Shown here: piece after piece, positions 6,206 to 61,400 of the stretch
How positions within the stretch are numbered: position 1 is the stretch's first letter
Layout: each line of letters opens with the position of its first letter
Assembly: GCA_964016885.1 (NCBI GenBank)
Contig: OZ024740.1
Location: forward strand, 269,266,001 to 269,330,000
Direction of reading: 5' to 3'
From: Eledone cirrhosa
Taxonomy: Eukaryota
Length of the DNA stretch: 64,000 nt
Notes under the pieces: model-generated
What the model saw: the letters and a program-made list of their open reading frames with translations, nothing else
Told to the model about the DNA's origin: nothing
The model's database searches: none
Translations under genes and position numbers: made by a program

Positions 6206-6337
6206 CATATATATGTATACATATATATATATTTATATATATATATATATATATGATGTGTAAAATGACATAAAATGATGATGATGATATATATATATCC
6301 AGACTTAGAAAATCATCCTTGTACTATTATTATATAT

Positions 6338-8357
6338 ATCAAAGACATGAAGACAGGCAAGGCGGCTGGGCCTTCGGAAATAGTTGCTGAAATGCTGAAA
6401 GCATCTGGAACGGTGGGACACACTATGGTCACCCGGATAGTAAACCAAGTCATACAGAATGGGGTCGTTCCGAAGGACTGGCATAGCAGCATCATCATTA
6501 ACTGCTACAAGGGTAAAGGAGATGCCCTAGATAGGGGAAACTATAGAGGCATTAAATTAATTGACCAGGTTATGAAGGTCACGGAAAAAGTAATAGTGCA
6601 ACTAATCAGAGAGCGAATTGATCTAGACGAAATGCAGTTCGGGTTTGTGTCAGGTAAAAGTACAACAGACGCTCTTTTCATTGTACGACAACTACAGGAG
6701 AAGTACCTAGCTAAAAGTAAACCCCTATACTTAGCTTTTGTTGACTTGGAGAAAGCCTTTGACAGAGTACCCCACTCGATTATCTGGTGGGCTCTTAGAA
6801 AACTAGGTGTTGATGAATGGCTTGTGAGAACTATACAAGCCATGTATAAAGAAACAGTCAGCAAGGTTAGAATTAACAACGAATATAGTGAAGAGTTTAG
6901 CGTAAAAGTTGGTGTTCATCAGGACTCCGTCCTTAGCCCCCTACTATTTATTATTGCCCTTCAGGCTATAACAGAGGAGTTCAAGACCGGCTGCCCATGG
7001 GAACTCTTATATGCAGATGATCTAACGCTCATAGCTGAATCAATGGCTGAACTAGAGAAGAAATTCAAAACATAGAAGCATGGCCTAGAATCAAAAGGCC
7101 TTAAAATTAACCTGTCTAAGACTAAAGTTCTAGTTTGTAGGAAGGAAAATAGGGCACTGGTCCCATCTGGAAATGGCCATGCTCAATGTGTAGGAAAGGA
7201 GTAGGCAGAAACTCCATTTTATGTCCCGAATGCAAAGTATGGGTGCATAAAAGATGTAGTGGGATCACAGGTAAGCTAACTAAGAATATAGATTTTATAT
7301 GTGGCCGGTGCTCAGGTGCAATAAGTAGCAGCAAGTGCCCACAGAATACTAGCTCATTCCATTGCACAGATGGTTCTATAGAAATAGTGGACACCTTCCG
7401 TTACCTGGGTGACAAAATCAGCAGTGGTGGAGGGTGCTCTGAAAGTACAGTAGCTAGAGTCAAAATGGGATGGAAAAAGTTCAGAGAGCTTATACCACTA
7501 TTGGCCGCTAAAGGGTTCTCTCTAAAAATGAACGGCAGGCTGTATGATGCCTACATACAAACAGCAATGTTACATGGCAGTGAGACTTGGGCATTGTGTG
7601 CAGAGGATATACGCAGACTGGAGAGGAATGAAGCTTGCATGCTCCGTTGGATGTGTAATAGTAATATACGTGAACCGCAAAGCATAAATGAACTAAGGGA
7701 GAAATTAGCAATAAGAGGAATCAGATGTTGTTTACTCGACAGCAGACTACATTGGTATGGTCACGTGATGCGCATGAAAGACGACAGCTGTATAAAAAAG
7801 TGCAGGGCGATAAAAATAGACGGTAGCTACAGAGTAGGCAGACCCAGAAAAACCTGGGACCACTTGATAAATTCTGACCTCACACACTTACACCTCTACA
7901 AGACAATGTCACTGGACCGAGATATTTGGCGCTACACAGTAATACAGAAGACCCGCTTTGCCTAAGTACAAAGCGAAACCTACAGTCAGTAGGCACCTCT
8001 AACAAAAATGCACCCCCACCCCCACCCCATCCACACCACCCCTTTCGATGTAAAGTTATGTTGGTACCACAGGATATAGTCCGAAACAAATGAGGTCATG
8101 TAGGTGTCACGAAAAAAAACCCACACAGTCCACGCTGTAATGTGGTTGTGTAGCTAACACGGTACAAACCTCCCAGTCCACACTGTAAACGTGGTTGGTG
8201 TTAGGAAGGGCATCCAGCTGTAGAAAACCCGCCAGACAGTCCTATACGAGCAAGACAACCATCTTGCCTCAAGTGGTGGGAAAATTCCCGTCCAAACCCA
8301 TGCTAGCGTGGAAGATGGACGTTAAACGATGATGATGATGATGATGATGATGATGAT
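6338..8357 (+). mobile_element. 5'-truncated RTE LINE copy, same subfamily as 2325-6205
   Basis: Highly similar RT/PHD/C-terminal sequence with a stop at 7073-7075 and a frameshift near 7170; (GAT)n tail; 5' end abuts (TA)n. Confidence 0.95.
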
Positions 8358-15280: not shown

Positions 15281-17727
15281 TCATCATCATCATCATCATC
15301 ACCGTTTTACGTCCGTTCTTCCATGCTAACATGGGTTAGACGGGTTGTCCTGTTGTGGGCAGTGTCTGGTCGGCTGACCATGCGTTGCTCATACAGGGAC
15401 TGATTTTGGCTTGATTTCTACAGCTGGATGTCCTTCCTAACACCAACCTCATTTACAGTGAGTGCTGGGTGCTTTTTCGTGGCACCTACACGTCCACTTT
15501 ACAGTGTGGGCTGGGTGCTTTTTTGCCGTGGCACCTCCACGACCATCTTGCAGTGGAAGGGTGTGGGGGCATATTGTCTATATGCTTCAGCTTGTACCCA
15601 TGGGAGGTCGGGTACTCTGTATTACTGCGTGACGCCAGAGGTCACGGTCGTGTGTCATCGCCTTTGAGAGGTGTAATTGGGTAAGGTCGGCTTTTATCAC
15701 CTCATCCCAGGTCTTCTTGGGTCTCCCCACTCCGCGGTTTCCATTGACTTCTAGTGCTCTGGACCTTTTTATGCAGCTGTCATCCTTCATACGCATCACA
15801 TGTCTATACCAACGCAACCGCCTCTCCTGCACACAGCATTTGATTCCTCTTATGCTCAGTCTCTCTCTCAATTTATTTATCGCGTATATTACTATTACAC
15901 ATCCATCGGAGCATGCAGGCTTCGTTTCTTACTAATCTACGTAAGTCTTCCACCTTCAGCGCCCAGGTCTCACTACCATGTAACATTGTTGTTCGGATAC
16001 ACGCATCATACAGTCTGTCTTTCATTTTGAGGGAGAAGCCTTTTGCAGCTAGCAGTGGCAGTAGTTCCCTGAACTTCTTCCATCCCGTTCTTACCCTAGT
16101 TATTGTACTTTCTGAACACCCACCTCCGCTGCTAATTCGGTCACCTAGGTAGCAGAAGCTGTCTACTGTGTGTACAGAGCCCTCCCAGAGATTGGTGGTA
16201 CTTGATTTCTGTGGCTGTTTGCTGCTTGCTGTCCCAGCACAGCTGCTGCATGTGAAGCCTACATTCTTAATTAAGCTTCCTGAGATCCCGCTACATCTCT
16301 TGTGTACCCATTGTTTGCATTTGGGGCAGAGAATGGAGTTCCTACCTACATTTTTCCTACATACTGAGCAAGGCTATTTCCCTGAGGGGATCTGGGTTCT
16401 GTTTTCTCGTCTACTTACAAGGACCTTAGTCTTTCTCATGTTGACTTTGCGACCCTTTCCTTCTAGTCCCTGCTTCCAAGTTTGGAATTTCTTCTCTAGT
16501 TCTACCATAGATTCAGCTATAAGTGCGAGGTCATCAGCATACAGGAGTTCCCATGGGCATCCGGTCTTAAACTCCTCCGTTATTGCCTGCAGGACTATGA
16601 TGAACAGGAGAGGGCTAAGAACAGAGCCCTGGTGGACACCAACCTGAACGCTAAATTCCTCGCTATACTCATTGCTAATCTTAACTTTGTTGACTGCTCC
16701 CCTATACATGGCTTGTACAGCTTTCACAAGCCATTCATCTACTCCTAGTTTTCTAAGAGCCCACCAGATTACAGCAAGTGGAACTCTGTCAAAGGCTTTC
16801 TCGAGATCAACGAATGCCAGGTAGAGTGGCTTACTTTTAGCTAGGTACTTTTCCTGTAACTGCCTCACAAGGAAGAGGGCATCAGTGGTGCCTCTTCCTG
16901 GTATAAACCCAAATTGCATCTCATCTAGTTTCACCCGGTCCCTAATCAACTGTACTATAACTCTTTCTGTTACTTTCATGACCTGGTCCATCAGCTTTAT
17001 ACCTCTATAGTTTCCTCTATCTAGTGCATCACCTTTACCTTTGTAGCAGTTGACAATGATGCTACTGCACCAATCTTTTGGTATGACACCTTCTAGTATT
17101 ACCTGGTTAACAATACGTGTGGTTATAGTGTGACCTACAGACCCAGATGCCTTCAGTATCTCGGCAGCTATACTCGATCGACCAGTTGCCTTCCCCATCT
17201 TCATATCTTTGATTGCCTTACTTACTATGCTGCTGCTGACTTGTACTGCTGGCCCCTCTATAGGGTCTTCTTGGGGTAGGGTCTCTTCTTTCCATGCATT
17301 CTCCTCATTTAGTAATCTATCATAATGGCTCTTCCATGCATCTTTCTTCTCAGCACTTGTGAGGGCAAGCTCACCTTTATCATTCTGGATACACTTCTCT
17401 CCAATGACATCACAATTCTCTCTGACACACTGCCTCGCAATCTTGAACACCTCCTGTTTCTGGTCCTCACGTTGCAAAACATGCTTGAATTTTCTATCCT
17501 CTGCTTTCCTCCTAGCTTCCCTCTTGGTCTCTATGTAATGTACCCCGCTTCCCCCGTTCTTCCATTCTTTCCATGCCTCTCTTGGCCTTAACTGCCTCAT
17601 CTACCTTATTGTTCCACCACCAAGTCACTCTCCTCCTGCTTGTGGTCTTACTCCAGCCACAGATCTCATCCGTCGCCTGTAGTAAGTTATTTTTTAGGAA
17701 CTCCCAGTGCTCTTCTACATTGAATGT

Positions 17728-19496: not shown

Positions 19497-21690
19497 TCAT
19501 CATCATCATCATCTTTGTTTAATGTCCATCTTCCATGCTAGCATGGGCTAGATGGGAGTTGTCCCACTTGAGGCAAAGTTGGTCGGGTGACCGGGTCTCG
19601 CTCATATAGGACTGGCAGGTTTTCTATGGATGGATGCCCTTCCTAACACCAACCACATTTACAGTGCGGAACTGGGAACTTTTTACCATGTTACCTACAC
19701 GGCCACGTTACAGCGTGGACTGTGTGTTTTTTTCTCGTGACACCTACACAATCTAGATCTCATTATCTCATTTATTTGGACTGGATGTTGTGGTACCAAA
19801 TTTACAGAGAGAGGGTGGTGTTGGTGGGAGTGGGAGGATAGGGTAGGGGTAGTGGATTGGGGTGTATATTTGGTTAATAGGTGCCTACTGACTGTAGGTT
19901 TCGCTTTGTACATAGGCAAGGCAGGTCTTCTGTATTACTGCGTAGCGCCAAAGATCTCAGTCCAGTGATATTGTCTTAGAGGGGTGCAAGTGTGTAAGGT
20001 CGGAATTTATCAGATCGTCCCAGGTTTTTCTGGGTCTACCTACTCTGTAACTATCATCAATTTTGATCGCCCTGCACTTTTTTTATACAGCTGTCGTCTT
20101 TCATGCGCATCACGTGGCCATACCAACGTAGTCTTCTCTCAAGTAAACAGCATCTGATCCCTCTTATTCCTAATTTTTCACTTAGTTCATTTATGCTTTG
20201 CCGTTCACGTATATTATTATTACACATCCAACGGAGCATGCAAGCTTAGTTCCTTTCCAGTCTAAGCAGGTCCTCTGCATGTAATGCCCATGTCTCACTG
20301 CCATGTAGCATTGCTGTTCGTATACAGGCATCATACAATCTGCCTTTCATTTTTAGAAAGAAACCTTTTGTGGCCAACAGAGATATAAGCTCTCGGAACC
20401 TTTTCCATCCTGTTCTGACTCTGGGTACTGTACTTTCAGAAGACCCGCCACCACTGCTGATTTCGTCACCCAGGTAATGGAAAGTTTCCACTATTTCTAT
20501 AGAACCATCTGGACAATAGAAGGGGCTAGTATCCTGTGGACACTTGCTACTTATTGCACCAGAGCATCGGCCACATATAAAGTCTACGTTCTTAGATAGT
20601 TTATCTGTGATCCCACTACATCTTTTATGTACCCATACTTTGCATTTGGGACATAAAATGGAATTTCTGCCTACACCTTTCCTACACACTGAGCATGGCC
20701 ATTTTCCTGAGGGCACCTGTGCCCTATTTTCCTTTCTACAAACTAGAACTTTAGTCTTAGACAAGTTAACTTTACAGCCTTTTGATTTTAGGCCATGCTT
20801 CCATGTTTGGAATTTCTTCTCTAGTTCAGCCATTGATTCAGCTATGAGCATTAGATCATCTGCGTATAGGAGTTCCCATGGGCAGCCAGTCTTGAACTCC
20901 TCTGTTATAGTGTGAAGGGCAATAATAAATAGCAGGGAGCTAAGGACAGAGCCTTGATGAACACCAACTTTTACACTAAATTCTTCACAATATTCATTTT
21001 TAATTCTAACCTTACTGACTGTTTCTTTATACATAGCTTGTATAGCTCTCACAAGCCATTCATCTACACCTAGTTTTCTAAGAACCCAACAGATAATGGA
21101 ACGAGGGACTCTGTCAAAGGCTTTCTCCAGCTCTACAAAAGCTAAGTAGAGGGGTTTACTTTTAGCTAGGTACTTCTCCTGTAGTTGTCGCACAAGGAAA
21201 AGAGCGTCTGTGGTACTTTTACCTGACACAAACCCAAACTGCATTTCATCTAGATCAATTCACTCTCTGATTAGTTGCCCTATAACTCTTTGTGTGACCT
21301 TCATGGCCTGGTCAACTAACTTAATGCCTCTATAGTTTCCCCTATCTATAGCATCCCCTTTACCCTTGTTACAGTTAATGATGATGCTGCTACGCCAGTC
21401 TTTTGGTATGACCCCATTCTGTATTACTTGGTTAACTATATGGGTGACCATAGTATGTCCCACCATTCCAGATGCCTTCAACATCTCAGCAACTATCTCT
21501 GAAGCCCCAGCTGCCTTGCCTGTCTTTATATCTTTGATTGCCTTACTTATTATACTACCTTTAACTTGCACAGCTGGTCTTTCTATTGGATCGATTTGGG
21601 GCAGACTATCTTTTTCCCATTTATAGTCTCTCGTAGTGACACTTCCAGGCTATCTTCTTATCAGTATCAGTGAGGGCAAGTACACCGTTA
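19497..21690 (-). mobile_element. 5'-truncated RTE LINE, close to the 2325/6338 subfamily
   Basis: ORF pieces 21260-21571, 20246-21244 and 20057-20239 separated by stops; PHD finger; (GAT)n tail; both ends lie in TA runs. Confidence 0.95.
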
Positions 21691-29787: not shown

Positions 29788-30635
29788 CTAAATATAAAAG
29801 AAAAAAAGAGAACAAATTAATACATAGTCAAATTGTATAAGACTTAGAAGTTTTACATACTTTTCTTCAACTTTTGTTATTCAAATTCAAAAGAAGTTTT
29901 GTGAACTTAGCTTAATAACAAAAACAGATTTATATATATATATATACATATGCATGCACACACACACATATATATATATATATACATATGTACATGACCT
30001 TTTATGAAACAAGTATATTCAGTCTATATAGAAGAACAAAAATGCTAAAACTAATAGAAGAGATTTAAAAAATGACAATAAAAGAAAATAAACATAAAAA
30101 CAGAGAGAATTTGAAAAATGTCATTTTCCTGAATAGTTTGATTGAGAGTACAACAAAGGTGTCATATTCTGAAGAGGAATTGAAAGATTAAAAGGCAAGA
30201 AAGAGAAAATATATAAAGAACCAAAGCTTCCAAAAATAAAATAGAAATAAAAGAAGCAACTACTAAAAATGCATTATTGATGGAACAATTGCTGAATATA
30301 ATACAGAGGAATAAAAACAAAAAGAATGTAAGAAAAGAAAAGAAATATAAATATATTACTAATATAAAACAAATATGAATAAATGATAGCACAAGAGCAA
30401 GAAGAAGACAAGCAGCAAAAGCTAAAACAGCAGCAGTAAAGGCTGCAGAGGAGGGGGTTAACAGCAATAAAACTAATCTTTTCTGTTTGTTTGTTTTTGT
30501 TTCTTTTCGGACACATTGGCCCATATATAGAGTATAAGTCATGTCATAGAAGAGAAGTTACAAAACATGTGAGTATACTCTGTGAGTGTGTATATATAAA
30601 TACACACACACACATATATACATAGAGATGGTGAC

Positions 30636-33600
30636 TGTTGTGCGTTCTAATATTGCAAAACTAAGCTCCAATTCCAAGCTTTTATTCAATATCTAGAATA
30701 TAAAAACAGTAATTAGTCTTGAAGAAATATAACAATAATATTTGTAAGAAAAGAAAGATATGCAATAAAACAAAGTTATATGGCGGATAGATGAACTTCA
30801 TAACATTCTTTGCCGATTTTATTGTTCTTCAATATAGCGCTTGGGGGCTATGCGTATACGATTGCTTCGTCTCCCGGGGTCAACAGGAACTTGCGGTAGG
30901 ATGCTAGTGCTATTTGCCACGGGATTTAAATCAATCACGGTTTCATCTAAGAGTAGATCGTTACTGTGGTCGATGTTAAGTGGTCTCGGCATATCAGCAG
31001 GACTGCTAATCGACTGTTTTCTTGGATGGATTGTTTGTCATTATTTTGACAATGAATTGGGCCAGGGGAGAGGTCTGCTGTTGAGACTATACTAGATCTT
31101 CCATTTTGATATCTGACAACTGCAAAATTAGCATTCACCATCTGTTCGATAATAACTTTATTCACTAATGGGTCGTTCTTTGTACGAATAAAGTTTCTAA
31201 TATAGGCGTTGTTTCCAACTCTAAGCCAATCTGGTAGGGAAAATCCTGAGGAACCCTTTCGATCGAATCTAAATATGCGGTTATGGGGTGTTTCATTAGT
31301 CGCTGTACAGAGAAGTGATCATTGCGAGGCAAGAACTTCTGGTATGATATCTTCCCACTTAGTTTCTTTAAGTTTGCGCAAGTTAATTATGCATTGAATT
31401 CCTTTCCAGAGGACTCCGTTGTAGCGCTCGTTTTGGCCATTTCCTTGTGGATGGTACGGCGAAATGCGCGTGTGGGATATACCATTGGACAAGCAGAAAT
31501 GATCGAATTCTTTGGAGAGAAACTGAGTTCCTCGATTGGAGTGTATGAATGAGGGAGCTCCGCATATTGAGAAGATTTGTTTGAGACAGTTAATGACAGT
31601 GTTTGAGGTGATGTCATGCATACCGGAAGCAAAAGGGAATCTGCTGAATTCGTCTACTGCAGTCAATAAGTATATGTTTCCTACTTTTGAAGATTTTGGT
31701 TTTGGTCCAACGATATCGATTGACTGACGTTCGAACAGCCTTGTTGACTTAATGAGTTTAGCAGGTGGAGGCTTGAAGAATTTTGGCTTGCACTCCAAAC
31801 ATGATACGCAGTTTTTGACGACGTCGCGGATTTCGTCTACGGAAAAGGGCAGGTTATGGCGTCGGATATAATCGTAAAATCTAGTTACTCCTGGGTGTGC
31901 TAGTTGGTCGTGGAGTACTTTTAAATCACAGGGTGGCGTACTTAGCTGCAGCGATTCTTGAAAGACAATCGGCTTGGGTGTTGAGGTAGCCGGGTTTGTA
32001 GTCAATGTCAAATTGATGCTCTGATAGTTCTAAACGCCAGCGAGATATTTTATCATTTTTGATTCGTGATTTATTACTCGAGAAAATGAAGGCTACTGAT
32101 TTTTAGTCAGTCCGTATAATCATATGAAAACACTTCACGTATTGCGACCATCTCCGTACAGCTTCAATAATAGCCATAGCTTCTCGCTCCACAGTTGATT
32201 GTCTTTTCTCGGATGGTGTAAGTGTTCTCGACAGGAAGGCCACTGGCCGTTCGTTTTGAGAAAGTATAGCTCCGATTGCATCGCCAGACGCATCTGTTTC
32301 TATTACCAATGCATGGCCAGTTTTAAGAGGAATGCTAAGAGCGGCATTAGAGATATCTGCTTTCATGGCTTGTATTACATCTGTAGCTACTTTATTCAGC
32401 GGGAACGAGTCAGCTTGTAATAGTGGTTGGATTTTCTTCGAGTAATCGGCAATCCACCTAGCATTATAGGCTAGGAATCCAAGGAATCGTTTCAGTTGTT
32501 GTTTGTTTGTTGGGATTGGGTAGCCTAGTAGGGTTTTGATGCGTTCCTTATCGGGTTTGTTTACTCCGTTCTGAATGTTATAACCTAGTATAGATATACT
32601 CGTTTGGCAGATTTTACTCTTATCCAAGTTAAGAGATAGGTTTTCTGTCTTCACGGCGTTTAAGAATGCTTCCACATTCTATCATGTTCAGCTTTGGTAT
32701 TTCCCATGACGTTGTCAATATAGGCATAGGTTTTGAGTAAGTTATATTTCTCTATAACTTGATCCATAATTCTCTGAAAAACAGGTACAGTGTTAGTCAC
32801 GCCGAAGGGTAAACGGCAGAATTGGTAGAGTTTGTGATTAGCCTGAAATGCCGTTAGAGGTTTGTCGATTTTTCTTAAAGGTACTTGGTGATATGCTGAT
32901 TTGAGGTCGAATTCTGAAAAATATTTATCCTGTGCCACTTTGTTAACAACATCCTCAATGTCGGGGGATGGATAGGCATCCAATTGTGTATACTTATTAA
33001 TTGTCTGGGAGTAGTCTACCACGAGTCGAGGTTTCTTTCCGTGTACTATGAAGCACTGAGCTCGCCAAGGTGAAATTGATTCCTCAATGATACCGGCTTC
33101 TAGGAGGCGAGTTATTTCGGACTTAATAAAATTGTCGTCTCTCTTGTTAATGAAACGTCCCTTAGTGGCAATCGGCTTGATATTTGTCTCGGCTAAATCG
33201 TGGAAGACAAGAGGCGGATTAACTTCTATTGTCGGAAAGGTACAGCATAGTTGATTTGAAAATTTCATGGGAGGCTGGGCACCGCCAAGGTGGAGAATAA
33301 TAGAGCTATGCTGGGTGAGGACATCCATTCCGATAATGACGTCTGCGACAAGACTTTTTGCAGTGATTAGGTTCACAGAGTATTCCTCGCTGTAGATACA
33401 TATTGGTATGGATGTAGTACCAGTCGTCATTAATATTTTATTGTCGGCTAGTGTGATTGCCCGTTTTTCTTGTTTTACGCTCAAGTTTAATTCAGTTGCT
33501 ATGCTATGACGTATAAATGAATCTGTGGAACAAGGATCGATTAAGGCCTTTAGTGTGGTGTCTTTTATAGTTATCGGGCAGAGAATAGCTTTAGACTGTT

Positions 33601-34692
33601 TGCCGGTATTTAATGAACATATAAGTGAGGCTGCTTGCTTACTGCTTTGGCAGTCAGATTTACAGACTGATTGCCAGTGGCCGATCTTCCCACAAGAATA
33701 GCATATGTCTTTTCTAGCTGGGCATTTATTTCTAGGATGCCTAGAAAGTCCACAAAAAAAGCATTTAAATTCACTTTGGGAATTAGCATTTTTCAAGTAT
33801 TTCAGAAGAGGTTGTTTTGATTTTGTAGCTGCTACGGTAGGTTCTTGAGAGGATATAGTTGACAGTGTTGATGAATTCAGAGAGACATCCAGGTTGAATG
33901 ATTTAGTAAAATCACTGGATAGTTCTATTGCATTTGCCATTGCTATGCAGTCTTTTAGGTTTGCTTGAGTATCGTCCAGCTCTAGGAGACGTGCTCGTAT
34001 AGCGTCTGATTGGACTCCTGCTACTAGTGAATCCAGGATCAACATATCTCTGTGGTCTTTAGCTGTGATGGCTTTACAGTTACATTTTTCCACTAAAAGG
34101 TTGAGTCTTTTAATAAACTCTCGGACGGTTTCTTCTTGCTTTTGGCAGCATGTTAGGAGTTGATGTCTGGCATAGAGTATACGACTGGGGGCTAAGAATT
34201 GAGTATCCAGGGTGATTAGTGCTTCATTGAAGTTTTCTGCAGATTCGAGTAAACTAAATAGGTCGGCCCCAGCTTGTGAACGAAGGTAGGTCAATTTATG
34301 GTTGTCCTCTACTATGCCGTTTATGAGTAGGGAATCCACAAAACACTTCCGCCACCATCGCCATTGCTCGGATGTGGTGTCATTTGGGAATGTTGGATGT
34401 GGAATTTTTAATTGAGCCATTGGTATTGAGAATGTAGCAAGCTTTGAGGGTGGAAACGAATACCACAAAACGTCTAGTCTCGGAACGAAACAGTTGTAAC
34501 AAATATCATATTGAATAAAACTGTTGTGCGTTCTAATATTGCAAAACTAAAGCTCCAATTCCAAGCTTTTATTCAATATCTAGAATATAAAAACAGTAAT
34601 TAGTCTTGAAGAAATATAACAATAATATTTGTAAGAAAAGAAAGATATGCAATAAAACAAAGTTATATGGAGGATAGATGAACTTCATAACA
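30636..34692 (-). mobile_element. Ty3/Gypsy LTR retrotransposon (Mag-like), structurally complete but coding-defective
   Basis: TG..CA LTRs at 30636-30805 and 34522-34692 differing by 1 substitution and 1 indel; 5-bp TSD GTGAC; gag-PR-RT-RH-IN order. Confidence 0.95.
30815..34420 (-). pseudogene. Gypsy gag-pol polyprotein, disrupted
   Basis: Double Cys/His knuckle CFFCG..H....CPA....CYSCGKIGHW...C; protease ALIDPCS; RT DLKSAYHQ/LPFG/YIDN; RH ETDAS; IN HDQLAHPG, CxxC, VDEFSRF, ERYN. Frameshifts near 32670 and 31940, stops at 32103 and 31319. Confidence 0.9.
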
Positions 34693-34794
34693 GTGACCTA
34701 AATGGACCTGTGTTTTCTCATAGGATTTTTTTTTCATTTCTGCCACTGCTCACTCTTCTCTAACTTTCAATTTCTTCTTTAATTTCTAATTCTA

Positions 34795-37554: not shown

Positions 37555-38164
37555 GTATATATGTTTTTAATGATATGAAAGATTTCCTGGTGGAAGTTCA
37601 GGTAAACTCTGGGTTGATATCCAGTTTCGGGTTGAAAATCCAATTTGAAAATCCAACCCGTCCCTTCAATCTATCTTATTTGTCGTTCTTTCTTCTGATG
37701 AAGGACTAGCATAAAAAATGTTAAGACCCTCTTCCTACTATTTCAAGCGTTAACCTAATATATTTCTTCCATATACTGTACCAATTGTGTTGTCATTTCT
37801 GTTTACCTTTTACATACATATATATATTTTTATGTATCTTAGGGATTGTAATGCCCAGTTACAGTAGGTTTACCAGAGTGAACACTCAATGCATAGTTTC
37901 CAGTAGGTATATTGCTGTTGTACTAAACAGAATGTAATACTAATAAAAATAACAATAAAAAAAAACGAGTGTTAGATCTTCATTACGTTTATTGAGGTGT
38001 GACATGCATTTCACGATTCATCAGCTCAACAAAAGACTGATGAGCTTTTGATTCCAGATTCAGACCAGATTGATACAGATTGAGCCTTGAGCTGATCAAT
38101 CATGAAACCCATGTCACACCTCAGTAAACACAAGGAAGATCTAACACTCATCCTTATTATTATT

Positions 38165-41100
38165 GTTATTATTATTGGTGTTCGTGTTTTTGTTGATGTT
38201 GTTTTTGGTGGTGGTGGTGGTGGTGGTGCAGCTTTCCGTGCTGACACTGGCATTGGCAACAAAGGAGGTTTGCGACCCCCTGCATTTTTTGCGCTGAGGG
38301 CAGAAGGCTTGAAGATGCGTTGCTTCCCCGCAGATGAAGCAGCGTGGCCTTCTTCCGTCAATCATTAGTTGGATTGTTGTCCCATCCTGCAGGCGGGCAA
38401 AATCCGGGATGTTATTCATATCCTCCGGTTTCATTTGGAGAAGAATCTCCAAATCCATTCCGGTCCAGTCCTCTCTCTCTGTCCTTTTGATGTCTAGGAG
38501 GGCAGTGTCTGTCCCCTCCTCGATTACGCAAGCAGCCGGATCACCACCAACACCAAAACCAATCCAAGGAGAAAACGAGGAAAGCTCTCCCACTCCCCCC
38601 CCCCCCCCCCCAATTATACACATAGACAAAACAATAAACGCACACACAGATACAGAGACACTCACAGACACAGACCCTTTGTCTTCCAGCAGCGAAGATG
38701 AAGGAAAACCCAAAAGTGCAAAAAAACAGAGGAAACTTACAAAAAAAAAGCCCCAACAAAACACAAAAACACACTAAACAAAAAATACAGACACCTCTAA
38801 TGCAAACACTTCCCCAATAACATCATCACCAACAGCAACATTGACACCACCTCCACAATCCCCGAAATGCAAACAACCTAAACAAATACAAGTACAAATA
38901 AACACACAAATACCTGAAATTGCAGACACCACACCTACAACAAACACAGACATACCCGAAACAACACCACCAAAACCATCACCACCACCTTCACCAAAAC
39001 GAAAACAAATAAAACCACACCAACAAAATGTTAAAAACTTTGTGCTTGTCAGAAGGGCCAACGATAAACTGATGGCCCTCTTAGTGCGAAGCGAGGATAT
39101 TCAAACAGAGGGGGAGATTTTTGAAATGAGCACATTTTGCGTGCCAGAAGATTTGCTTCTGGTCCGAATGTCAATCAATTCCTTCAAAGAAATTCGAGAG
39201 AGCTTTCTTCAAGACGTGGGAACCCCGAATGTGAAACCCACATCAAGACTTTTAAAGGGGTTCCCAAAAGAAACCCCACCAACCATGGAGGTCGAACCAC
39301 CCGACCTTCACAAGACCCGGGAGGTAAGTAAACCTACCCTCTCTCTCTCTCTTAGCTTACCAATATGGCCATATTAAGAGTAGGAAGTTTAAATGTTCGC
39401 GGCCTGGGGTCACCCTGGTCGCCTGCTCAACAACCTCCGGTCGCTGGAAATGGATGTGATTGCCGTAAGCGAGACCAGAATTTCCAACACGCGCGCACTA
39501 GCCCCCATTTTCGACGACTATCAGATCTTCGCATCTGTTAGCAGACCGGGAAGGGGTGGGGGTGGGGGTGGCAGTGCTGTTTAGGAAAGGACTGGATCTC
39601 GAGGTAAGGTCGATCTTCCGGGACCCGGACGGTAAGTTGGTGGTCTTGGATGTGAGCAGTAGCGAAGGTGGTGCCTTTAGACTGCTGGCCGTCTACGCCC
39701 CAACGGGGGCCGGACGCCCTGACTTCTTTAGGCGCCTGGAGACCTTTCTGGGTACGTCTCGCCCTTTACTGTTAGCGGGGGACTGGAATGGCATCTTAGA
39801 CGCACGCTGGGATTGTGTGGGAGTAACCGATAGAGGCGGGGGATGCAAAAGCCTCAAGCACCTAATCAGCCAGTTCCAACTGTCTGACAGGTATCGACTA
39901 GATTTCCCCAATGTGCCAGAATGGACATGGACCAACCGAATGAGGTCATCTAGATCGTATATAGAGGATTTGGTTGGGGAGGCGCAAACTTGCGCAATCC
40001 TAGCCAGGTCCATACACGACAATCTCCCCCTCATGCGATACATCATAGAGAGGGTGGGGTGTAAACCTGGCTTCGGTGGGGCACTGATCAATTTAGATCA
40101 ATCGAAAGCATTCGATAGGGTCGACCATCGGTATCTGGAGTTTGTCCTCAAAGCAGCTGGCTTCGGCCCTGTCTTTAGAAGCTGGATCGTTGCAATGCAC
40201 AGCGGCACACGCTCGGTGGTCAAGGTTAATGGCCACCTCTCGGAACCATTTCGGCTCTCCCGATCGGTCCGTCAAGGGTGCGATCTCTCTTCCCTTCTGT
40301 ACATATTGACTCTTGAGCCTTTACTGCGGAAGCTGGAGCTGTTGCAGGGCATCCCACTCGAATCGGGACATGGAAAGGCGGTTGTCGGCTTATGCGGACG
40401 ACATCACCGTGATGGTGTCGAACACCTCAGAAATCGAGGTGGTTGGCATCTTATTGAAGGAATATGAAAGGTTGACAGGAGCCAAACTTAACGCGGAAAA
40501 GTCGGTGGGCTTGCAGCTGGGGAACCTGGAGAGGCAAGCCCATGCCGTCCAACAGCGTCGTGGGGCGCTGGACGGACGGACCGGTAAAGTTGCTCGGGGT
40601 TTGGTTCGGACGAGACTTCCAGGTGGAAAAGAATTGGGACGAGGTAACGAGCAGAGTAGCCAGTCTCACCCAAAAATGGGCTGGGAGGAAGCTATCACTG
40701 AAAGGTCGCGCGGAGGTGCAAATGCGTACATCGCGTCTGTCATCTACTACCGCCTAACCGTCGTGCCTTGCCCCGGTCCGCGCCTCGCCAAGTTGGAACG
40801 GCTCCTCTTCAAATTCTTGTGAAGGGGACAAGTTCCGTTGGTGAGGCGGTCCATCTGCTGCCAGCACCCTCTACGCGGAGGGCTGGGCATGCCGTGGCTA
40901 ATGATGCGCAGACATGCGTTGACGCTGCGACATCTCCAGATATTCTGCCTCAATGGTGAACAGGTGTGGTCGCCGTTTATCAGAAGGGCCTTTCCGCAGC
41001 TCATTTCTTTGACTGAGCTGCAGTCCTGGGTCAAGAAGAGACCGAGACTGGGTGACTGGCACCTGGAATGTTGCCAGGCACTCACTGCCCTCTACCAAGC

Positions 41101-42068
41101 GGGCAATGCGATCAGTGGAACTTCCACTCTCGAGTTCTATAGAGGATTAGTGGTGGGCAAGTGCGATGACGCACACGGAGAAGCTTTGGGCCTCGACGAA
41201 GTCGAACTGACCAGTCTGTACCGGAGGACTTTTGAGCCGGGGACGATGGACAATTTCCAGAAATCCCTCGCTTGGCAGTGCTACCGGGGGGGGGGGGGGG
41301 CACTGCCGGTTGGGGATAAACTCTACAGGCATGGAAGTGCTGTCAGACGGACCTGCCCAAGATGCGCACAGAACGACGAAACCGTTCTGCACGCACTTGT
41401 CCAATGTCCGTGCATTACTGACTTGTGGAGTTATGTCGAACAGCTACTGTCGCGTGTGGAACGAATCCGGCTATCGGCCGAGTCCATAGTGAAGATCGAG
41501 TCGCCACCTTCCTTAGGTCAGGAAGAGCAGGAAATTTTCCTCTGTCTGGTGGCAGTTGCGAAAGAGATTATATGGTGGACCAGGTTGAAAGGACTAAAGA
41601 CAGACACTTTTCTCTTCGGCCAATCCCTCATCAACTTCTTCAAGTTTCACCTGGAAAGGAGGGTGAGGGTGGAGAGAGAAGTGCTGCCCCCCAGTACATT
41701 TGCTAAAAGGTGGGTGAATATGGCGAGAATGGCTCGTGTGAATGGGCCTACTCTGACCATGCGCCTATAGGCTGGCTAACTTGAGGAGAGGGGTGCACTC
41801 CTGGGTGCCCTAGAAGCGCAGGGTGGTTCAGGATTGGTGGGGTACCCGAATCACCCCAGGGTCGTCCACCTCCTATCGGGGAATTTATTTTGTTATATTT
41901 ATGCATAGTTTATTTTATATTTTTATATTTTCATTGTTAAATTATTCTTGCCATTGTGCACTTTTACTCCACCTTATTGTAAACCCCCACTGTCCCTGTC
42001 TTGTCCCCTACATGTCGGCCCTTGTGGCTAATAAATGAAATTATTATTATTATTATTATTATCATTAT
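38165..42068 (+). mobile_element. Tx1/L1-clade LINE with a 5' inversion and an internal deletion
   Basis: ORF1 CCHC piece inverted at about 38175-38530; APE motifs VSET, VYAP, GDWN; RT LDQSKAFD, VRQG, YADD; C-terminal CPRC..ETVLHALVQC; AATAAA followed by (ATT)n. Confidence 0.9.
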
Positions 42069-44221: not shown

Positions 44222-45382
44222 CTAAGGAATGAAGATGATAATTTTTGTAAATATTACAAGGAAAATGATACACAGAAGTAAAGTATCCATTGACAAATTG
44301 TTTTGAATCATTATGATTATTAACTGACACTCCCCCCCTACATATCTCTATCTTATAACCACTAACCCTTGCAATAAACTATAAGCATGACGTAAGTTAT
44401 CTTGCTTCTCTCAACTTAATATAACTTTCTCTCAACTTTGAATATAACTATTAGAAAACTATATTTTCACTTAGAACAATTCCCCATACACTAACAGTCT
44501 AAAACTATCAGTTCATATACCTTTCTTCATTTCAACACTTCCATTGTTTCATATAAAGGTTTGATGTGTTTCTCTAACCACTAATCAATTCAAAGCAAAT
44601 ACTGCTTTACACTTAATTAGTTGTACCCCATCATTTCAGAAAGTACAGAAAGGCTACAGGCAGAATATTTCCGCATACAAAAGAATGGAAAATAGGAATA
44701 TAGAAAATCCATATATGCAAGAAAGTGGTCTCAGTGTAGAATAATATTGGTAAAAATTCAGTATTAAAGAAATAACTCATATATTTGTTAAGATGTGCAC
44801 ACCTGTTCTACATCACCAATACTGGACAAAACCGGGCACTTTGGTGGTTATGGGCAATCATATTGACTACAGAACTTTGACTGGTACTTAATTTATCAAC
44901 GACCAAAAGGATTAAATATAAAAATCAACCATAGCAAGATATGAATTAAAAACATAATAAAATACTGCAAGATATGTTGTCTACATTGTACTCATTCTGC
45001 CAATATGAAAGGGTTACTGGAACAAGTAACTGATTATTATGTAGATAAATACACAATGGTTTACAACAATGATACATAGTTGGAACAGCTACTGTAAGAG
45101 GTAATTGGCTTGTTTTATCACACTAGCATGAACAAACATTGTAATTTAGCAGTAGTACTTATACATAGACATTCTAAAGTTTACAAAGCAAAGCTGTAGA
45201 CAAAGGAGATTAAAATGAAGATTAAATTGATATTAGAGAATCAGCATAAGTGGAAGTATAAAACTTGGTATATGTGGCATGGTATATGTGACTTGGTATA
45301 CAGAAGAAATATGTGAAACTTAATAGAAAATGTTTGGAGAATTTGTGGCATAAGGGATAATATGTAGTACTTGGAAGAATAA

Positions 45383-45935
45383 GTGGTACTTGGGAGAATA
45401 TGTAGTACTTGGGAGATTATGTGGTACTCGGGAGAACATGGGCTACTTGGGAGACTATGTGGCACTTGGGAGATTATGTGGGACTTGGGAGATTATGTGG
45501 GACTTGGGAGATTATGTGGGACTTGGGAGATTATGTGGGACTTGGGAGATTATGTGGTACTTGGGAGATTATGTGGTACTCAAGAGAATATGGGGTACTC
45601 GGGAGACTATGTGGTACTTTGGAGAATATGTGGTACTTGGGAGATTATGGGGTACTCGGGAGATTATGGGGGTACTCGGGAGAAAAGGTGGTACTTGGGA
45701 GAGAGGTGGTACTTGGGAGAGAGGTGGTACTTGGGAGAAAGGTGGTACTTGGAAGAAAAGGTGGTACTTGGGAGAAAAGGTGGTAATTGGGAGTAAATGG
45801 TGGTACTTGTGAGATTATGTGGTAGTTGAGAGAGAAAATAATGGCTCTTGGGAGAATATGTGGTACTTGGGAGATTATGGGGTAGTTAGGAGATTATATG
45901 GTACCTGGGAGAATATGCACATGGAGGAATATGTA
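45383..45935. repeat. G-rich minisatellite, 17-19-bp unit GGTACTTGGGAGATTATGT
   Basis: About 28 tandem units; unit variants cluster in blocks. Confidence 0.92.
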
Positions 45936-49827: not shown

Positions 49828-52800
49828 AATAATAATAATAATGATGATGATTTCATTTATTGACCACAAGGGCTGACATGTAGGGGACAATACAAAGACT
49901 GGGCTAGTGGGGGGTTTACAATAAGATTGAGTAAAAATGCACAATAGCAAAACGTATTTAACAATGAAAAAATATAAAAATAAAATATAGATAAAAATAA
50001 CAAAATATATTCCCCAGGTACCATACCAATGGCCATTCTTGCCTCTCTCACCCATCTTTCAACAAAATGCTGGGAAGAGAGCACTTCCTTCTCTACCCTG
50101 ATTTTCCTTTTCAAATGAAATTTGAAAAGGTTAATCAGGGCATCACCGAAGAGGTAAGTGCACGTCTTCAGCTCTTTCAGACGCGTCCACCATACTATCT
50201 CTTTCGCCATGGCCACCAGACAGATAAAAACTGCCTGCCCTTCGTGGCCAAAGGAAGAGGGCGGAGCAATCCACAAGATGGACTCAGCTGATAGCCGGAT
50301 CCGTTCTACATGCGACAGCAGGTGTTCAACATAAACCCACAAGTCAGCAATGCTCGGACACTGGACGAGTGCGTGCAGGACGGTTTCGTCGCCCTGCGCA
50401 CATCTCGGACATGCCCGGCTGATGGCACTTCCATTCCTGTAGAGTTTATCCTGAACTGGCAAAGCTCCTCAGCAGCACTGTCAGGCCAGGAACTTCTGGA
50501 AGTTGTCCATAGGCCCCGGCCCGAAAGTTCTTCCGAAGAGATTGCCTAGCTGATTTTCATCGACACCTAGAGTTTCCCCCAAGTACGTTCTCGCCCTTTC
50601 CCTCCACTAATCCTCTATAGAACGCCAAGGTGCAGTTTCCACCGATCACATTGCCTGACTGGTTGAGGGCTGTGAGCGCCTGAAGACATTCCAGTCTCCA
50701 AGCGCTCCCTCTCGGTCTTTGCTTGACCCAGAAATGCAGCTCCGTCAAGGAGATGAACCAGGGAAAGACGCGTCTAGCAAATGGTGACCACACCTGATCA
50801 CCGTCAAGGAAGAAGTGGAGATGTCGTAGCCTGAGCGAGTGTCTGCACATCATCAGCCACGGCATGCCCAGCCCTCCACGTAGCGGGTGTTAATAGCAGA
50901 TGGACCGCCTGACCATCAGAGTGCGTCCCTTCCACAAAAAGCAAAAGAGCAAACGCTCCAACACAGTCAAGCAGAGCTATGGGCCTGAAATTATCTATGT
51001 TAGCCTCCTTGTTCAGATCCTTTCTCAGCAGCGCCATCGCTCCTCGGCTCACAGAGCTGGGAATTCTCCCATTCTGTTGCCAGTTGCAATAGACGACTGC
51101 CAAGAGGTCTCCGAACAAGTCTGGCATCTGTACGTAAAGTTCATAGGGCAGACCATCCAAACCAGGCAATTTACCCCTTGTGCGGCCAATCACGCCTCTC
51201 GTACTTCAGCTGCTGTTATCAGCTTTTCGCAACACTCCGCCTCAGTGGCCGAGAGCCGCGGCAGTCAGTCGAGGTAGGCAATAAAGTCCATCCCTCGATC
51301 CGGCCCGCCGCTGCCCCCCGGGATCGAGTAGCATGCGCCCGTCGTGGTCCACCAAAGACCGGATCGTGGCTTTGTTGCCACGACGCGCCTCCGCCACTCA
51401 GGCCCATTGAACGGCTTTCGTCCCCTCATGTCTGAGAGCACGCACCCTAGCTCTGACAACGCAGCCTTGGAAGAATTGGTTAAGGGTCAATTTTGCCGCA
51501 AATACATCGGTCGCGATGCCTCGTCTAATTTTTTAACTAGTTCTCCCTCTGCTCTATTTTTCTCTATTGCTAAAGCCTTACTAAACCTAATGGACTCTAT
51601 TCTAATCGCACTTTTCCAACAAACCACCATTTATTGTTGACGATGGCCCCCGTCAACGCCTGCTTAACTAGTTCGCTAATCCGGTCTCTGTAGGCCTTGC
51701 GTGCTGTTAATGATGCGTTTAGCTTCCAGTAGCTGGGTCCCTGTTTATGAAGCCTATTTAAGTCAACCACACAGATCACGAATGTGGTCCATGTAGCTGA
51801 CTATCTTGAATTGTGGACAGCCTATGCTAGACCTATCTATTTCCCTACAAAATACTCTATCTAGATATGATCGGGATGACCCAATGCGGTTTGTCCAAGT
51901 CCACATTGGCACGTTCAGGAAATCCAATCGGTACCTCTCCGACAGTTGAAAATGCCTGAGTAGGTTTGCGAGGCTTTTACACCCTCCTCCCCTATCCGCT
52001 AATCCCACACAATCCTAGCGTGCATCTAAGATCCCGTTCCAGTCACCCATTAACACTAGAGAGCGGGACATTCCAAGAAAGGTCTCCAGACGCCGGAAGA
52101 ATTCAGGCCGTCCTGCTCCTGTTGGGGCATTGGCGGCCACTAGCCTGAAAGCTTGTCCTTCTCTGCTGGTCACGTCCAGTACCACCAACTTACCTTCTGG
52201 GTCCAAGAAGAGATCCAGACTTCTCTGGAACAACACAGCCACTCTCCAATTGATGTGGGGAACATTTTTTTGAATGTTATGTCATTTTTTTGTGTAATTT
52301 CTATTATTTTTATGTGTGTGGGGGGTGCAATTTTGGTGGTTTGGACGCAGTTTGTTTCTGTGATGTTGGTGTGGTGTTGAATGTAATTTAAAAGCTTTGT
52401 GTTGTCTGTGTCTATGGCTGTGTATTGTGTCTGCTGTTTGGGTGTTGGTGCTTTCTGTGTTTGCTGTCGTGTTGTTGGAGGTGACGATGGGGTAGATGCT
52501 AAGGGTGGCGGTGGTGCTGGTGGCGGTGGTAGTATTGGTAGTGGTGATAGTGTAGGTGGTTGTGGGGTGTGGCTGTTGATGGTGGTGGAGGAGATGGAGT
52601 AGTTTTCATTTTCTTTTTTTTTTAGGATTCTTTCTTCCTCTCTTTTTTGGGGGGATGAGGGTAGGGAGTTCTTACTTTTTTTATTTGAATAGTTCTCCAC
52701 TCTTCGGCCTCATCGCACTCCTTGTCCAATTTGGCTACATCAGGAAGGGGTATGTTTTCCATTGGTTCTGTGGGTGGTGGAAGAGATGGTGTTTTTGTTG

Positions 52801-54130
52801 TTGGGGATGGTGATTTCTCTTCTGCCATTGTGGTGTTTGTTTGTTTGTCTGCTCCAGTTGCGGGGCACGACGTGGGGAGAAGGAGTGGGCGCGTGCCTGT
52901 TTTGGTATGTTTGGGGCAGAATGTCTTAAGGTGCGTCTTGTCACCACATCCATGACACCTTGGGCGCCTACCTTCGACAGTCACGGGTAAATGGCTGCCG
53001 TCGTCCAGGTCTATTACATCGGGGATGGCCTCAACGCTTTCCTGGTTCGCTGGGATGATTAGCTCCATCCCCGACCCTGTCCAGTTTTCCTGTCTTATTC
53101 GTATGACGTTCAGTATGGTTGTTGAATCCTCAACGTCAGCGAGGACGGCTGCCGTCAGCAATGCCATCTCCACTGAGGGCGGAACCTGGCCCACTCGAAC
53201 CTTCACGACTCTCTGGCCGCAGTATGTGGGCATCATTATGATTTCATCACTGCGGAGTGTACTCTGGCTTCTTCTGGTGTAGCGAAGAGCACATCCACAG
53301 TGCCATATCTTGATCCCCGGGCTATATATGTTTTCTGTGCCCAGACGGCACCCATAGCTCTTTGGATCTGTGACTCCGTTGCCCATTCAACTCGCCGTGA
53401 TTTTGATCCGATCGTGCGATAACTGACCGAACACAAAAGTTTGTTTCTTATTATCTCAGCTGGGCGGGTGAGACTTACCCTGTGTCCGGTCTTTTTAACC
53501 AAGACCTTTGCTTGTTTTATCTCTTTGTTAGTGATGTGTACTTGTTCAAAATTGTTTGTCACTTTCGCGAAAGATGTGTTTGTTTTGATTTGTGTTGACT
53601 CATCACTAGTTTTGTCTTTGTTGCCGTCATTGGTGTTTTTTTTTTTTTTTCTCTGTGTTGCTGCTGTTATAGTTGTTCTTTGAGTTCTTTATGGCTGTTA
53701 TTGTTGTCATTGGGGTGATGGCGGTGGTGTTGTTTGATTTTTCTAATGCAGGGAAGTTTTCGTTGTAATTTCCGCTACTGCTACTACTGTTCCAGTGGCT
53801 GCTGCTGCTGTTCTCACTACCACTGTCACTGCTGTTTCTCTTGTTTTTTACTTTGCCTTGTGATTGGGTGGAGATGGCTTGTCCACTCTCCGAACAACTC
53901 GCTGTTCCTCCCTGTGGACAATTTTTTTTGTCTGTCATGTTTTTTTAAAACAAAATTTGGGGGTTATGGTTGCAAATTTAGCCATCAAGGGCACGAGATA
54001 CAGTTAAAAAAAAAACCACCTCCTTTGACAGAGGGGTCCTTTAACTACACACCAAAGTAAAAAATATTATTAGAACTTTCAATAACTCATAAAAATTCAA
54101 CTAACTTACTCCGCTGTAGTTACCGCCGTC
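49828..54130 (-). mobile_element. Tx1/L1-clade LINE (second family) with 5' end and ORF1 retained, multiple ORF2 deletions
   Basis: ORF1 from ATG at 53938, frameshifted, with RPRCHGCGDKTHLKTFC knuckle; APE pieces; PGLDGLPYELY and NFRPIALL, after which the RT core is missing; C-terminal CPRC..HALVQC; AATAAA followed by an (ATC/ATT)n tail. Confidence 0.9.
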
Positions 54131-58477: not shown

Positions 58478-61400
58478 AATAATAATAATAATGATTTCAT
58501 TTATTGGCCACAAGGGCCAACATGTAGGGGACAATACAAAGACAGAGACAGTGGGGGTTTACAATAAGGTCGAGTAAAAGTGCACAATGGCAAGACTAAT
58601 TGAACAATGAAGATATACAAATATAAAATAAACTATGTATAAATATAACGACCCAGGGGTGGCTCAGGTACCCCACCAATCCTGAACCACCCTGCGCTTC
58701 TAGGGCACGCAGGGACAGCACCCCTCTCCTCAAATTAGCTAGCATATAGGCGTATGGTCAGAGTAGGCCCATTCACACGAGCTATTCTCGCCACATTCAT
58801 CCACATTTTAGCAAATGTACTGGGGGGCAGCACTTCTCTCTCCACCCTCACCTTCCTTTCCAGGTGAAACTTGAAGAAGTTGATGAGGGATTGGCCGAAG
58901 AGAAAAGTGTCTGTCTTCAGTCCTTTCAACCTCGTCCACCATACAACCTCTTTCGCAACTGCCACCAGACAGAGGAAAATTGCCTGCTCTTCCTGACCAA
59001 AAGAAGGCGGCGGGTCGATCTTCACTATGGACTCGGCCAATAGGTGGATCCATTCTACACGCGACAGTACCTGTTCGACATAACTCCACAAGTCAGTAAT
59101 ACACGGACATTGGACAAGTGCGTGCAGAACGGTTTCATCGCTCTGTGCATTTCTTGGGCAGGTCCGTCTGACAGCACTTCCGTGCCTGTAGAGTTTATCC
59201 CGAACCAGCAGTGCCCCCGGTAGCACTGCCAAACAAGGGATTTCTGGAAATTGTCCATCATCCCCGGCTCGAAAGTCCTCCGAAACAGACTGGTCAGTTC
59301 GACTTCGTCAAAGCCCATAGCCTCTCCGAGTGCACCATTGGCCACCACTAATCCTCTATAGTACTCGAGAGTGGAAGTACCACTGATCGCATTGCCAGCT
59401 TGGCAGAGGGCAGTGAGTGCCTGGCAATATTCCAGGTGCCAGTCATCCAGTCTCGGTCTCTTCTTGACCCAGGACTGCAGCTCAGTCAAAGAAACAAGCT
59501 GAGGAAGGGCCTGTCTGATAAACAGCGACCACACCTGTTCACCGTTTAGGCAGAATATCTGGAGATGTAGCAGCCTCAGCGAATGTCTGCGCATCATTAG
59601 CCACGGCATGCCCAGCCCTCCACGGAGAGAGTACTGGCAGCAGATGGACCGCCTCACCAATGGAACTTGTCCTCTCCACAAGAATTTGAAGAGGAGCCGG
59701 TCCAACTTGACGAGTTGCGGAGGGGGTCAAGGCACGACGGTCAGGCGGTAGTAGAAAACGGACTCGATGTATGCATGTGCCACCTCCTCACGACCTTTCA
59801 GTGATAGCTTCCTCGCAGCCCATTTTTGGATGAGACTGGCTACCCTGCGCTCAGCGACGACCGTCGAGATGCGCAGCAAGCCATCAAGGTAGGGACTGAA
59901 ATCCGCTACTCTCTCTGACCCACCACTCTCCCCAAACAACCGAGCAAAGTGCTGGCGAAAGGCCTCACACATCCGCTTGGAATCGCTAATCTCGTGTCCG
60001 TTTCGGTCCACCAAGGACCGAATTGTGGTTTTATTACCACAGTGCGCCTCTGCCACACGGGCCCATCGAACAGCTTTGGTTCCCTCGTTTATCAGCACAA
60101 GCGCCTTAGCTCTGACAATGCAACCTTCGTGTTTCGCATTGAAGAAATGGTCTAATGCCATTCTCGCCGCTAGCACGTCAGTTGCAATGCCACTACAAAT
60201 AGACTCGTCTAACTTATCTACCAACTCCCCCTCCTTTCTATTTTTCTCTAATGCTAGTTCTTTGCTGAACTCTATCGAAGTTACTCTAATCTTTCTTTTG
60301 ACAGCCAACCACCATCTGTTGTTGATGATCCCCCCTGTCAACTTTTGCTTAACTACATTGTTGACTTGGTCCCTGTAAGCCTTACGTGCCAGAAATGACA
60401 TGTTCAGCTTCCAGTAACCAGGTCCTAACTACGCGTTTTATCTAGGTCGACCATACAGATCACAAATTTGTGATCTGAATAAGTGACCGTTTTAAAAAGT
60501 GGGCAGCCTAGACTATTTCTATTTATTTTCCTAATGAAGATCATGTCTATATATGATCTAGATGACCCTATGCGGTTGGTCCACGTCCACACTGGCGCAT
60601 TGGCAAATCTAGTCGATACCTGTCAGACAGTTGGAACTGGCTGATTAGGTGCTTGAGGCTTTTGCACGCCCCGCTCTTATCAGTTACTGCCACACAATCC
60701 CAGCATGCGTTTAAGATGCCGTTCCAGTCCCCTGCTAACAGTAAAGAGCGAGACATACCCAGAAAGGTTTCCAGGCACCTAACGAAGTCCCGTGATCCGG
60801 CCAAAGTAGGGGCAAAGACTGCCAGCAGTCTAAAGGCACCACCTTCACTACTGCTCACATCCAGGACCACCAACTTACCGTCCGGGTCCCGGAAGATCGA
60901 ACTTTCCTCCAGATCCAGGCCTCTCCTAAACAGCACTGCCACCCCACCTCCCATTACCAGTCTGCTAATAGATACGAAAATCTGATAGTCATCGAAAATG
61001 GGGGCTAGTGCATGTGTTTCGGAAATTCTGGTCTTGTTGATGGCAATCACATCCATTTCCAGAGACCTGAGGTCATTGAGCAGGCAGCCCTGCTTTCAGG
61101 GTGACCCCAGGCTGCGAACATTTAAACTTCCTACTCTTAATATGGCCATGTTGGCAAGCTAAAAGAGAGAGGGAAGGTTTACTTACCTCCTGGGGTCTTG
61201 TGAAGGTTGGGTGGTTCAACATCCATGGTTGGTGGGGTTTCTTTTGGGAACCCCCTTTAAAAGTCTCGATGTGGGCTTCACATTCGGGGTTCCCACGTCT
61301 TGAGGAAAGCTCTCCCGAATTTCTTTGAAGGAATCGAGCAATATTCGGACCAGAAGCAAATCCCCTGGCACGCAAAATGTGCTCATTTCAAAAATCTCCC

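Follow-up and report, generated by a model that had tools for sequence, protein, structure and literature searches.

Probable self-priming of a Ty3/Gypsy element without a chromodomain in Eledone cirrhosa, with antisense host exons behind the primer site of sister copies

Known self-primed elements and the element in the window

Self-priming of reverse transcription has been demonstrated in fission-yeast Tf1; otherwise, it has been based on complementarity alone. In the accessible text of the sources, Tf1/sushi chromoviruses are described as self-priming (PMC4600332, PMC5341516, bioRxiv 10.1101/2022.12.06.519325), and about half of the Tf1 cDNA retains, at the 3' end, a copy of the primer site (PMC11042837). 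For the Ty1/copia elements TAR, Houba and Osr-1 and for Tcn1, self-priming was predicted from complementarity between the primer site and the LTR; these belong to another superfamily (in plants) or to a chromovirus lineage, and the accessible part of PMC6317226 holds no exon-copy evidence. The element described here resembled Tf1, Tf2, Tj1 and the Tf1/sushi elements, as the accessible parts of PMC4600332 and bioRxiv 10.1101/2022.12.06.519325 present them, in that its primer site was complementary to an LTR stretch and lacked a TGG-type tRNA match. It differed from the Tf1/sushi elements in lacking a chromodomain, in having two CCHC knuckles and in a primer that overlapped the poly(A) signal. 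We propose, with a probability of about 85%, that this Ty3/Gypsy element without a chromodomain primes reverse transcription in cis with a 13-nt LTR stretch of its own RNA and not with a tRNA.

The window, which is the whole stretch of 64,000 nucleotides analysed here, contained a young Ty3/Gypsy element of 4,057 bp at 34692-30636. All element features given below are on the minus strand. Pfam searches found Gag, protease, RT, RNase H and integrase in this order between TG..CA LTRs, and together with the target duplication this placed the element in Ty3/Gypsy. The 5' LTR (TG..CA, 34522-34692, 171 nt) is repeated as the 3' LTR (30636-30805, 170 nt), and the two were identical in 171 of 173 aligned columns, with two differences. 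The 5-bp target duplication GTCAC lies upstream at 34693-34697 and downstream at 30631-30635, and a weak polypurine tract (30806-30820) stands ahead of the 3' LTR. The gag-pol region (30819-34420) carries frameshifts and stops. The copy is coding-broken, with gag-pol in four stop-to-stop pieces. The preliminary description had reported a double gag knuckle and no chromodomain, and both were found to be correct: two CCHC knuckles were seen in the translation (Pfam scored one), and no chromodomain matched in the gag-pol pieces of the window. None was found in eight full-length relatives that were scanned, and PF00385 gave 0 of 120 among the full-length relatives listed. By the chromodomain test on these sequences, the element is placed outside the chromodomain-bearing Tf1/sushi group.

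Cigr-1 elements have a single ORF of approximately 1,200 amino acids and short LTRs. Both features agreed with the element. By this architecture and by host range, the element probably belongs to the Cigr-1 clade. The relatives found here include Biomphalaria glabrata and tunicates, which is a likeness to Cigr-1. In the accessible part of PMC6238403 (supplement 3), Cigr-1 appears only in B. glabrata and Octopus bimaculoides (low-copy families) among nine mollusc genomes. The earlier label of Mag-like was a loose fit, as the accessible supplement 1 of PMC6238403 puts Cigr-1 under Mag; Cigr-1 itself is the likelier clade. Self-priming of such a clade was not reported in the accessible text of PMC8556966, PMC2774666, PMC3601003 and PMC6934838. 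The RT of the element scored 63.5 bits against the Ty3 RT and showed up to 59% identity within its own group. A distant family of the same genome, with an ordinary TGG site, formed a separate branch (100/100) in an RT tree of 42 rows. This tree was built without a chromovirus, with a two-ORF, TGG-primed family from the E. cirrhosa genome serving as the sole outgroup; we take this family to be CsRN1-like by its motifs. No relatives or outgroups were found among the viral contigs searched, and the ESM Atlas gave generic RT clusters only.

Several other repeats were observed. LINE copies at 2593-5697 of the window (plus strand), and also at 6269-7965, 15873-17600 and 20246-21259, carried a PHD finger directly after the RT domain in ORF2, which to our knowledge is not a usual position. 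A second LINE family, with RT and zf-RVT, is represented by three decayed copies at 38141-41770, 49857-53688 and 58735-61977, and a 19-bp tandem repeat array lies at 45276-45934. Elsewhere in the genome, approximately 13 tandem copies of the TGG-primed Gypsy family with a spacing of about 5.3 kb were located at G000:C3:346.96-347.04 Mb.

Pairing of the primer site with the LTR

The primer-binding site of the window copy (34508-34520) was compared with the LTR and with host tRNAs. As had been described, there was no TGG start after the 5' LTR, so the site did not have the TGG and tRNA 3' end match of a tRNA-primed element. Its 13 nt were the exact reverse complement of 34579-34567 in the LTR, which overlaps the AATAAA poly(A) signal and is the predicted self-primer. 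By analogy with Tf1, the cut is predicted between 34567 and 34566. The AAAGCT/AGCTTT hairpin (34550-34569) was also present and adjoins the predicted cut, and a helix begins at this position in most relatives. Two details of the preliminary description were only partly retained. The base after the LTR was G (34521) as stated, but this one-base spacer is private to the window copy, and A was found in the other 29 of 30 family junctions. The pairing stretch at 34579-34567 held, but the TATA-like runs lay at a non-canonical distance from 34579.

The match was examined as a possible coincidence of AT-rich DNA or a functionless fold-back relic, since the LTR is strongly AT-rich. Among 3,000 dinucleotide-shuffled versions of the LTR, none gave a 13-nt run; among 3,000 random 30-mers of the window, one did. 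Relatives of the element were distributed, by source names, among acoels, cnidarians, a nematode, molluscs, arthropods, echinoderms, tunicates and a ray. The detector looked for CA, a spacer of 0-2 nt and then a run complementary to the preceding 130 nt. Of 80 metagenome loci, 46 had no gag start preceded by a sufficient length of DNA, and together with 11 of 20 loci of the genome itself they were left out; the detector was applied to the remaining 43 loci. A complementary run of 11-18 nt was obtained in 30 of the 43 loci, and the same detector placed inside pol gave at most 7 in 40 of 40 controls. A neighbouring CA was picked in 3 of the 30 passes (L059, L089, L143). Thirteen loci fell below the 11-nt cut. 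On re-inspection, six showed pairing with 0-2 mismatches, and L066 had a 13-nt run; L140 reached 9, the 5' LTRs of L139 and L148 were disrupted, and L116, L125 and L132 were negative. Because the loci are not independent, the count is given as about 20 families.

The relatives kept the complementarity between primer site and LTR with changed letters. The covarying families came from metagenome contigs; the LTRs of acoel, sea cucumber, shrimp, leafhopper, tunicate and ray were left out. When the sequences were aligned at the predicted cut, pairs 4-11 varied with compensation, and the spacer was 1 nt in nearly all. There were 14 different 9-mers among 20 aligned rows. The rows were chosen for pairing, so only the changes of letters and the fixed position are informative. 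L071 and L074 differed by one compensated pair. In the same genome, a sister family with about 50% RT identity had a 12-nt primer site with a compensated change at pair 12. In the metagenome family of L058, L059, L066 and L089, the pairing was 17-19 nt long and reached the gag ATG, and the copies differed at one paired position. The covariation refuted the coincidence reading, whose remaining probability is negligible.

The Tf1 primer is about 11 nt long. In the families aligned here, the primer 3' end lay at ...AAA, and 18 of the 20 aligned rows had a G at -10, as part of AG in 14 rows and of TG in 4. This G, 10 nt before the predicted cut, would give a primer of about 11 nt, equal to the Tf1 length.

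Nearly every family had a hexamer resembling AATAAA, ATTAAA or GTTAAA at the end of the paired stretch, and the partner of this stretch occurred only behind the 5' LTR. Both observations would also suit pairing that only masks the poly(A) signal of the 5' LTR, with some tRNA fragment or other small RNA as the primer. The primer site was compared with 13 host tRNA-like genes (14 of 16 matches retrieved), and this scope leaves some room for such a primer; the longest run was 5, or 7 with G-U pairs. Against masking, the site held a fixed position 1 nt beyond the LTR, which is where a primer is required, there was no TGG site, and the letters differed among families. With 14 different 9-mers in 20 rows, each family would need its own matching tRNA piece, and these changing letters, as far as sequence can tell, argue against half-tRNA priming. 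In addition, the plus strand copied exon-plus-primer RNA in seven traced events, as given below. We consider masking very unlikely and self-priming the preferred reading.

Fold predictions were consistent with self-priming in the relatives. The primer helix formed unforced in 20 of 20 relatives (P 0.87-0.99), and a second helix starting at the cut was usual. A helix adjoining the cut was predicted in most of 21 folds, and duplexes with the flanks of the primer site, the 'pretzel' feature of Tf1, were not consistent. The window copy behaved differently. In its unforced fold the helix was absent (P 0.00, 7 kcal/mol worse), and other hairpins won with the G spacer; this was the one further point in favour of coincidence. 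Three typical sister copies gave P 0.14-0.84 depending on the length folded, and L013 gave 0.00-0.84. A hairpin internal to the LTR competes with the primer helix in this family. These predictions for the window copy and the sisters are what speaks most strongly against a simple fold in the family.

Host exons behind the primer site

The junctions behind the primer site were collected across the genome. The census gave 33 pattern matches, and 30 family 5' LTR junctions were kept after two matches in unrelated DNA and one internal second primer site were dropped. The junctions ran into normal leader in 21 of 30 and into foreign DNA in 9 of 30 (8 events), with 29 insertion events in total. The source was traced in five of the eight events. 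The 18-nt insert of L045 was left out of the source search, and no source was found for L037 or L042, with a repeat at the L042 junction. All five traced inserts were antisense host exon ending at GTAAGT or GTAGGT, joined to the first primer base, with introns missing. In L038, two C5 exons 124 kb apart were joined without the intron and bounded by AG and GT. Its exon end was AAG/GTAGGT, as in L039, and the ends were AAG/GTAAGT in L040, GGG/GTAAGT in L041 and TAG/GTAAGT in L043. L041 and L043 had their sources in repeats present in many copies, the best of which matched at 98% and 97%. Among 21 copies of the sister family, 2 were chimeric, both with exons ending at GT: L157 had two joined exons ending TAG/GTTCGT, and L208 ended ATG/GTAAAT in the best-matching repeat copies. 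The background per site in the window was 0.055 for GT and 0.0008 for GTRRGT. One further candidate, L158, was rejected as a chimera because it was a deletion.

In every traced chimera, the exon was joined to the first LTR base after AG. Since the exons end at a GT donor and join this base, the LTR AG served as a splice acceptor. In the window copy it corresponds to a T-rich tract (34580-34598) ending in AG at 34581-34580, the 3' splice acceptor in the RNAs behind the chimeric sister copies, whose exons were joined exactly to 34579. A branch-point-like CTAAT (34599-34603), the sole such motif of the LTR, may act with it. An intron inside the LTR was considered and rejected, as the LTR contains no GTA or GTG. 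The exon/primer junctions meant that the plus strand had copied RNA of exon plus primer before integration. The target duplications of the eight events were exact at 5 bp in four, had one mismatch in one and lay in a microsatellite in one; two had no 3' LTR in the retrieved DNA. Extra C, CT or CTA behind the primer site had been a candidate record of a start site at 34581, and this was rejected because the letters were exon ends once the sources were traced. In L041, the exon ending GGG gave CC behind the primer site, matching the exon end and not the LTR, and this too spoke against coincidence. As read from genomic DNA, the exon chimeras give strong support for self-priming.

The preliminary description had placed the expected RNA start at or just before about 34579. 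This was not borne out in at least 5 of 29 insertion events, in which splicing had joined host exons lying upstream directly to 34579. In the RNAs behind the seven traced chimeras, the self-primer was not 5'-terminal, unlike in Tf1-type priming, where the primer is the RNA 5' end. In the family of the element and its sister family, the primer begins where a splice acceptor was used, and long host exons can be attached to its 5' side. A different pattern was observed in most other families. There, a T-rich AG or TG followed by a pyrimidine resembled an initiator, which fits a 5'-terminal primer, and the pairing extended upstream of it. Based on these two features, most other families likely make unspliced RNAs. 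In the two families of the E. cirrhosa genome, the pairing stopped at the acceptor or took in only its G, and U3 was like an intron end.

The donors were examined for nearby LTRs. A solo LTR on the same strand, 4.65 kb downstream of the L040 donor and flanked by a target duplication of its own, is the likely parent. The unique donors of L038 and L039 had no nearby family LTR among 64 LTR matches, with none on C5 and a distance of about 79 Mb on C2, so cis splicing was shown for one case only. Their parents may be lost, polymorphic or unassembled, or splicing may have occurred in trans. Variants of the LTR did not link chimeras to parents, and cis and trans cases were not separable by them. These findings bear on whether the same 13-mer primer comes from a second RNA, such as a dimer partner, a 3' R copy or a host transcript spliced into a solo LTR, so that the chimeras would record trans priming or switching. 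The solo LTR beside the L040 donor, where no full element stands, the two donors without a parent element in the assembly, and the competition of the cis helix with the LTR-internal hairpin would agree with a second RNA. However, what usually remains of a full element is a solo LTR flanked by its target duplication, and the cis helix was the preferred fold in 20 of 20 relatives. In addition, priming by a 3' R copy predicts continuation into U3, and no chimera entered U3 beyond 4 letters. A primer from a second RNA is thus improbable, though less so than masking, and priming in cis is retained. A template switch to another RNA packaged together with that of the element is a further possible origin of the chimeras. 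A similar process, LTR-mediated retroposition (Tan et al. 2016), leaves intron-less host mRNA pieces between two LTRs and likewise returns to the element at short matches, according to the accessible text of PMC5131818. There, entry is by a microsimilarity template switch; here, it was always at the last base of the primer site, the first joint was a splice junction and the exon was antisense. For the retroposed inserts, the accessible text gives no orientation relative to the element.

Other structures were seen among the copies. L208 (G000:C1:134690713-134690984) was a fold-back of primer site, antisense exon, short loop, sense exon, primer and reversed U5-R-U3, and it resembled both strands of a cDNA end joined together. 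A dispersed repeat (L177-L179, L230-L232) with CACGTG boxes and an internal GT donor was the exon source in L040 and L208 independently and may be a promoter-bearing element. L221, L222 (G000:C3:290.48 and 290.65 Mb) and L226 were internally deleted, and their 5' LTRs stopped 4 or 16 nt past the acceptor and joined internal sequence; L221 and L222, about 170 kb apart, had one target duplication in common. In L043, L148 and L157, copies of the two families, other repeats were inserted in the R/U5 of the 5' LTR.

Proposed priming cycle and its meaning

The tRNA-independent self-priming suggested at the outset was supported by the covariation in about 20 families and by chimeras that copied RNA contiguous with the LTR 13-mer. 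In the proposed cycle, the 13-mer of the R region would pair with the site one base behind the LTR. By analogy with Tf1, RT-RNase H would then cleave the RNA directly on the 3' side of the paired stretch, which ends in ...UAAAA at the base of the small hairpin; the element has an RNase H domain. The freed RNA 3' end, ...UGAAUAAAA, would start the minus strand, again by analogy with Tf1. The primer would stay attached and be copied by the plus strand, which the genomic copies support, so that the site would be rewritten from the LTR in each cycle and the match kept perfect. Copying of the primer onto the plus strand is described for Tf1 in the accessible text of PMC11042837 and is proposed here for the present element. 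With a capped primer start, the copy would end at the site end. With exons attached, it would run on from the primer into the exon or exons, which would come to lie antisense behind the primer site, and it would have to jump back at short matches before normal integration, as the chimeras show. Exon pick-up would occur whenever element RNA was spliced onto a host transcript. The pairing would also, as a side effect, mask the poly(A) signal, but in the 5' LTR alone.

A broader reading concerns both E. cirrhosa families, and we put it forward tentatively, as possible but rather doubtful. Their U3 may have turned into an intron end with a long pyrimidine tract, a branch point and an AG, and expression may proceed mainly by splicing onto host transcripts, in cis with or without trans. 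The acceptor, and not a promoter, would set the start of the self-primer, the primer would consist of host exon plus 11-13 own bases, and antisense exons would be written routinely into new sites.

In the openly available literature, no report of self-priming was found for this animal lineage, nor any of exons copied from the primer; subscription papers, Repbase and GyDB lay mostly outside this scope, and an earlier mention there is possible. What is new here is the evidence from exon copies, together with a primer defined by splicing. The self-priming signature is present in a widespread animal lineage that has no chromodomain, and the genome holds natural reaction products in which the plus strand runs into spliced exons. 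These chimeras move self-priming from prediction to near-direct evidence, and the same test can be applied to any genome by finding chimeric copies and tracing the source of the sequence beyond their primer site. They also reveal a route of exon capture that invariably leaves the exon antisense and at the primer site; it was seen in 8 of the 29 insertion events of the family, with a traced source in 5. Should expression depend mainly on splicing onto host transcripts, the activity of the element would track the expression of host genes and not its own promoter.
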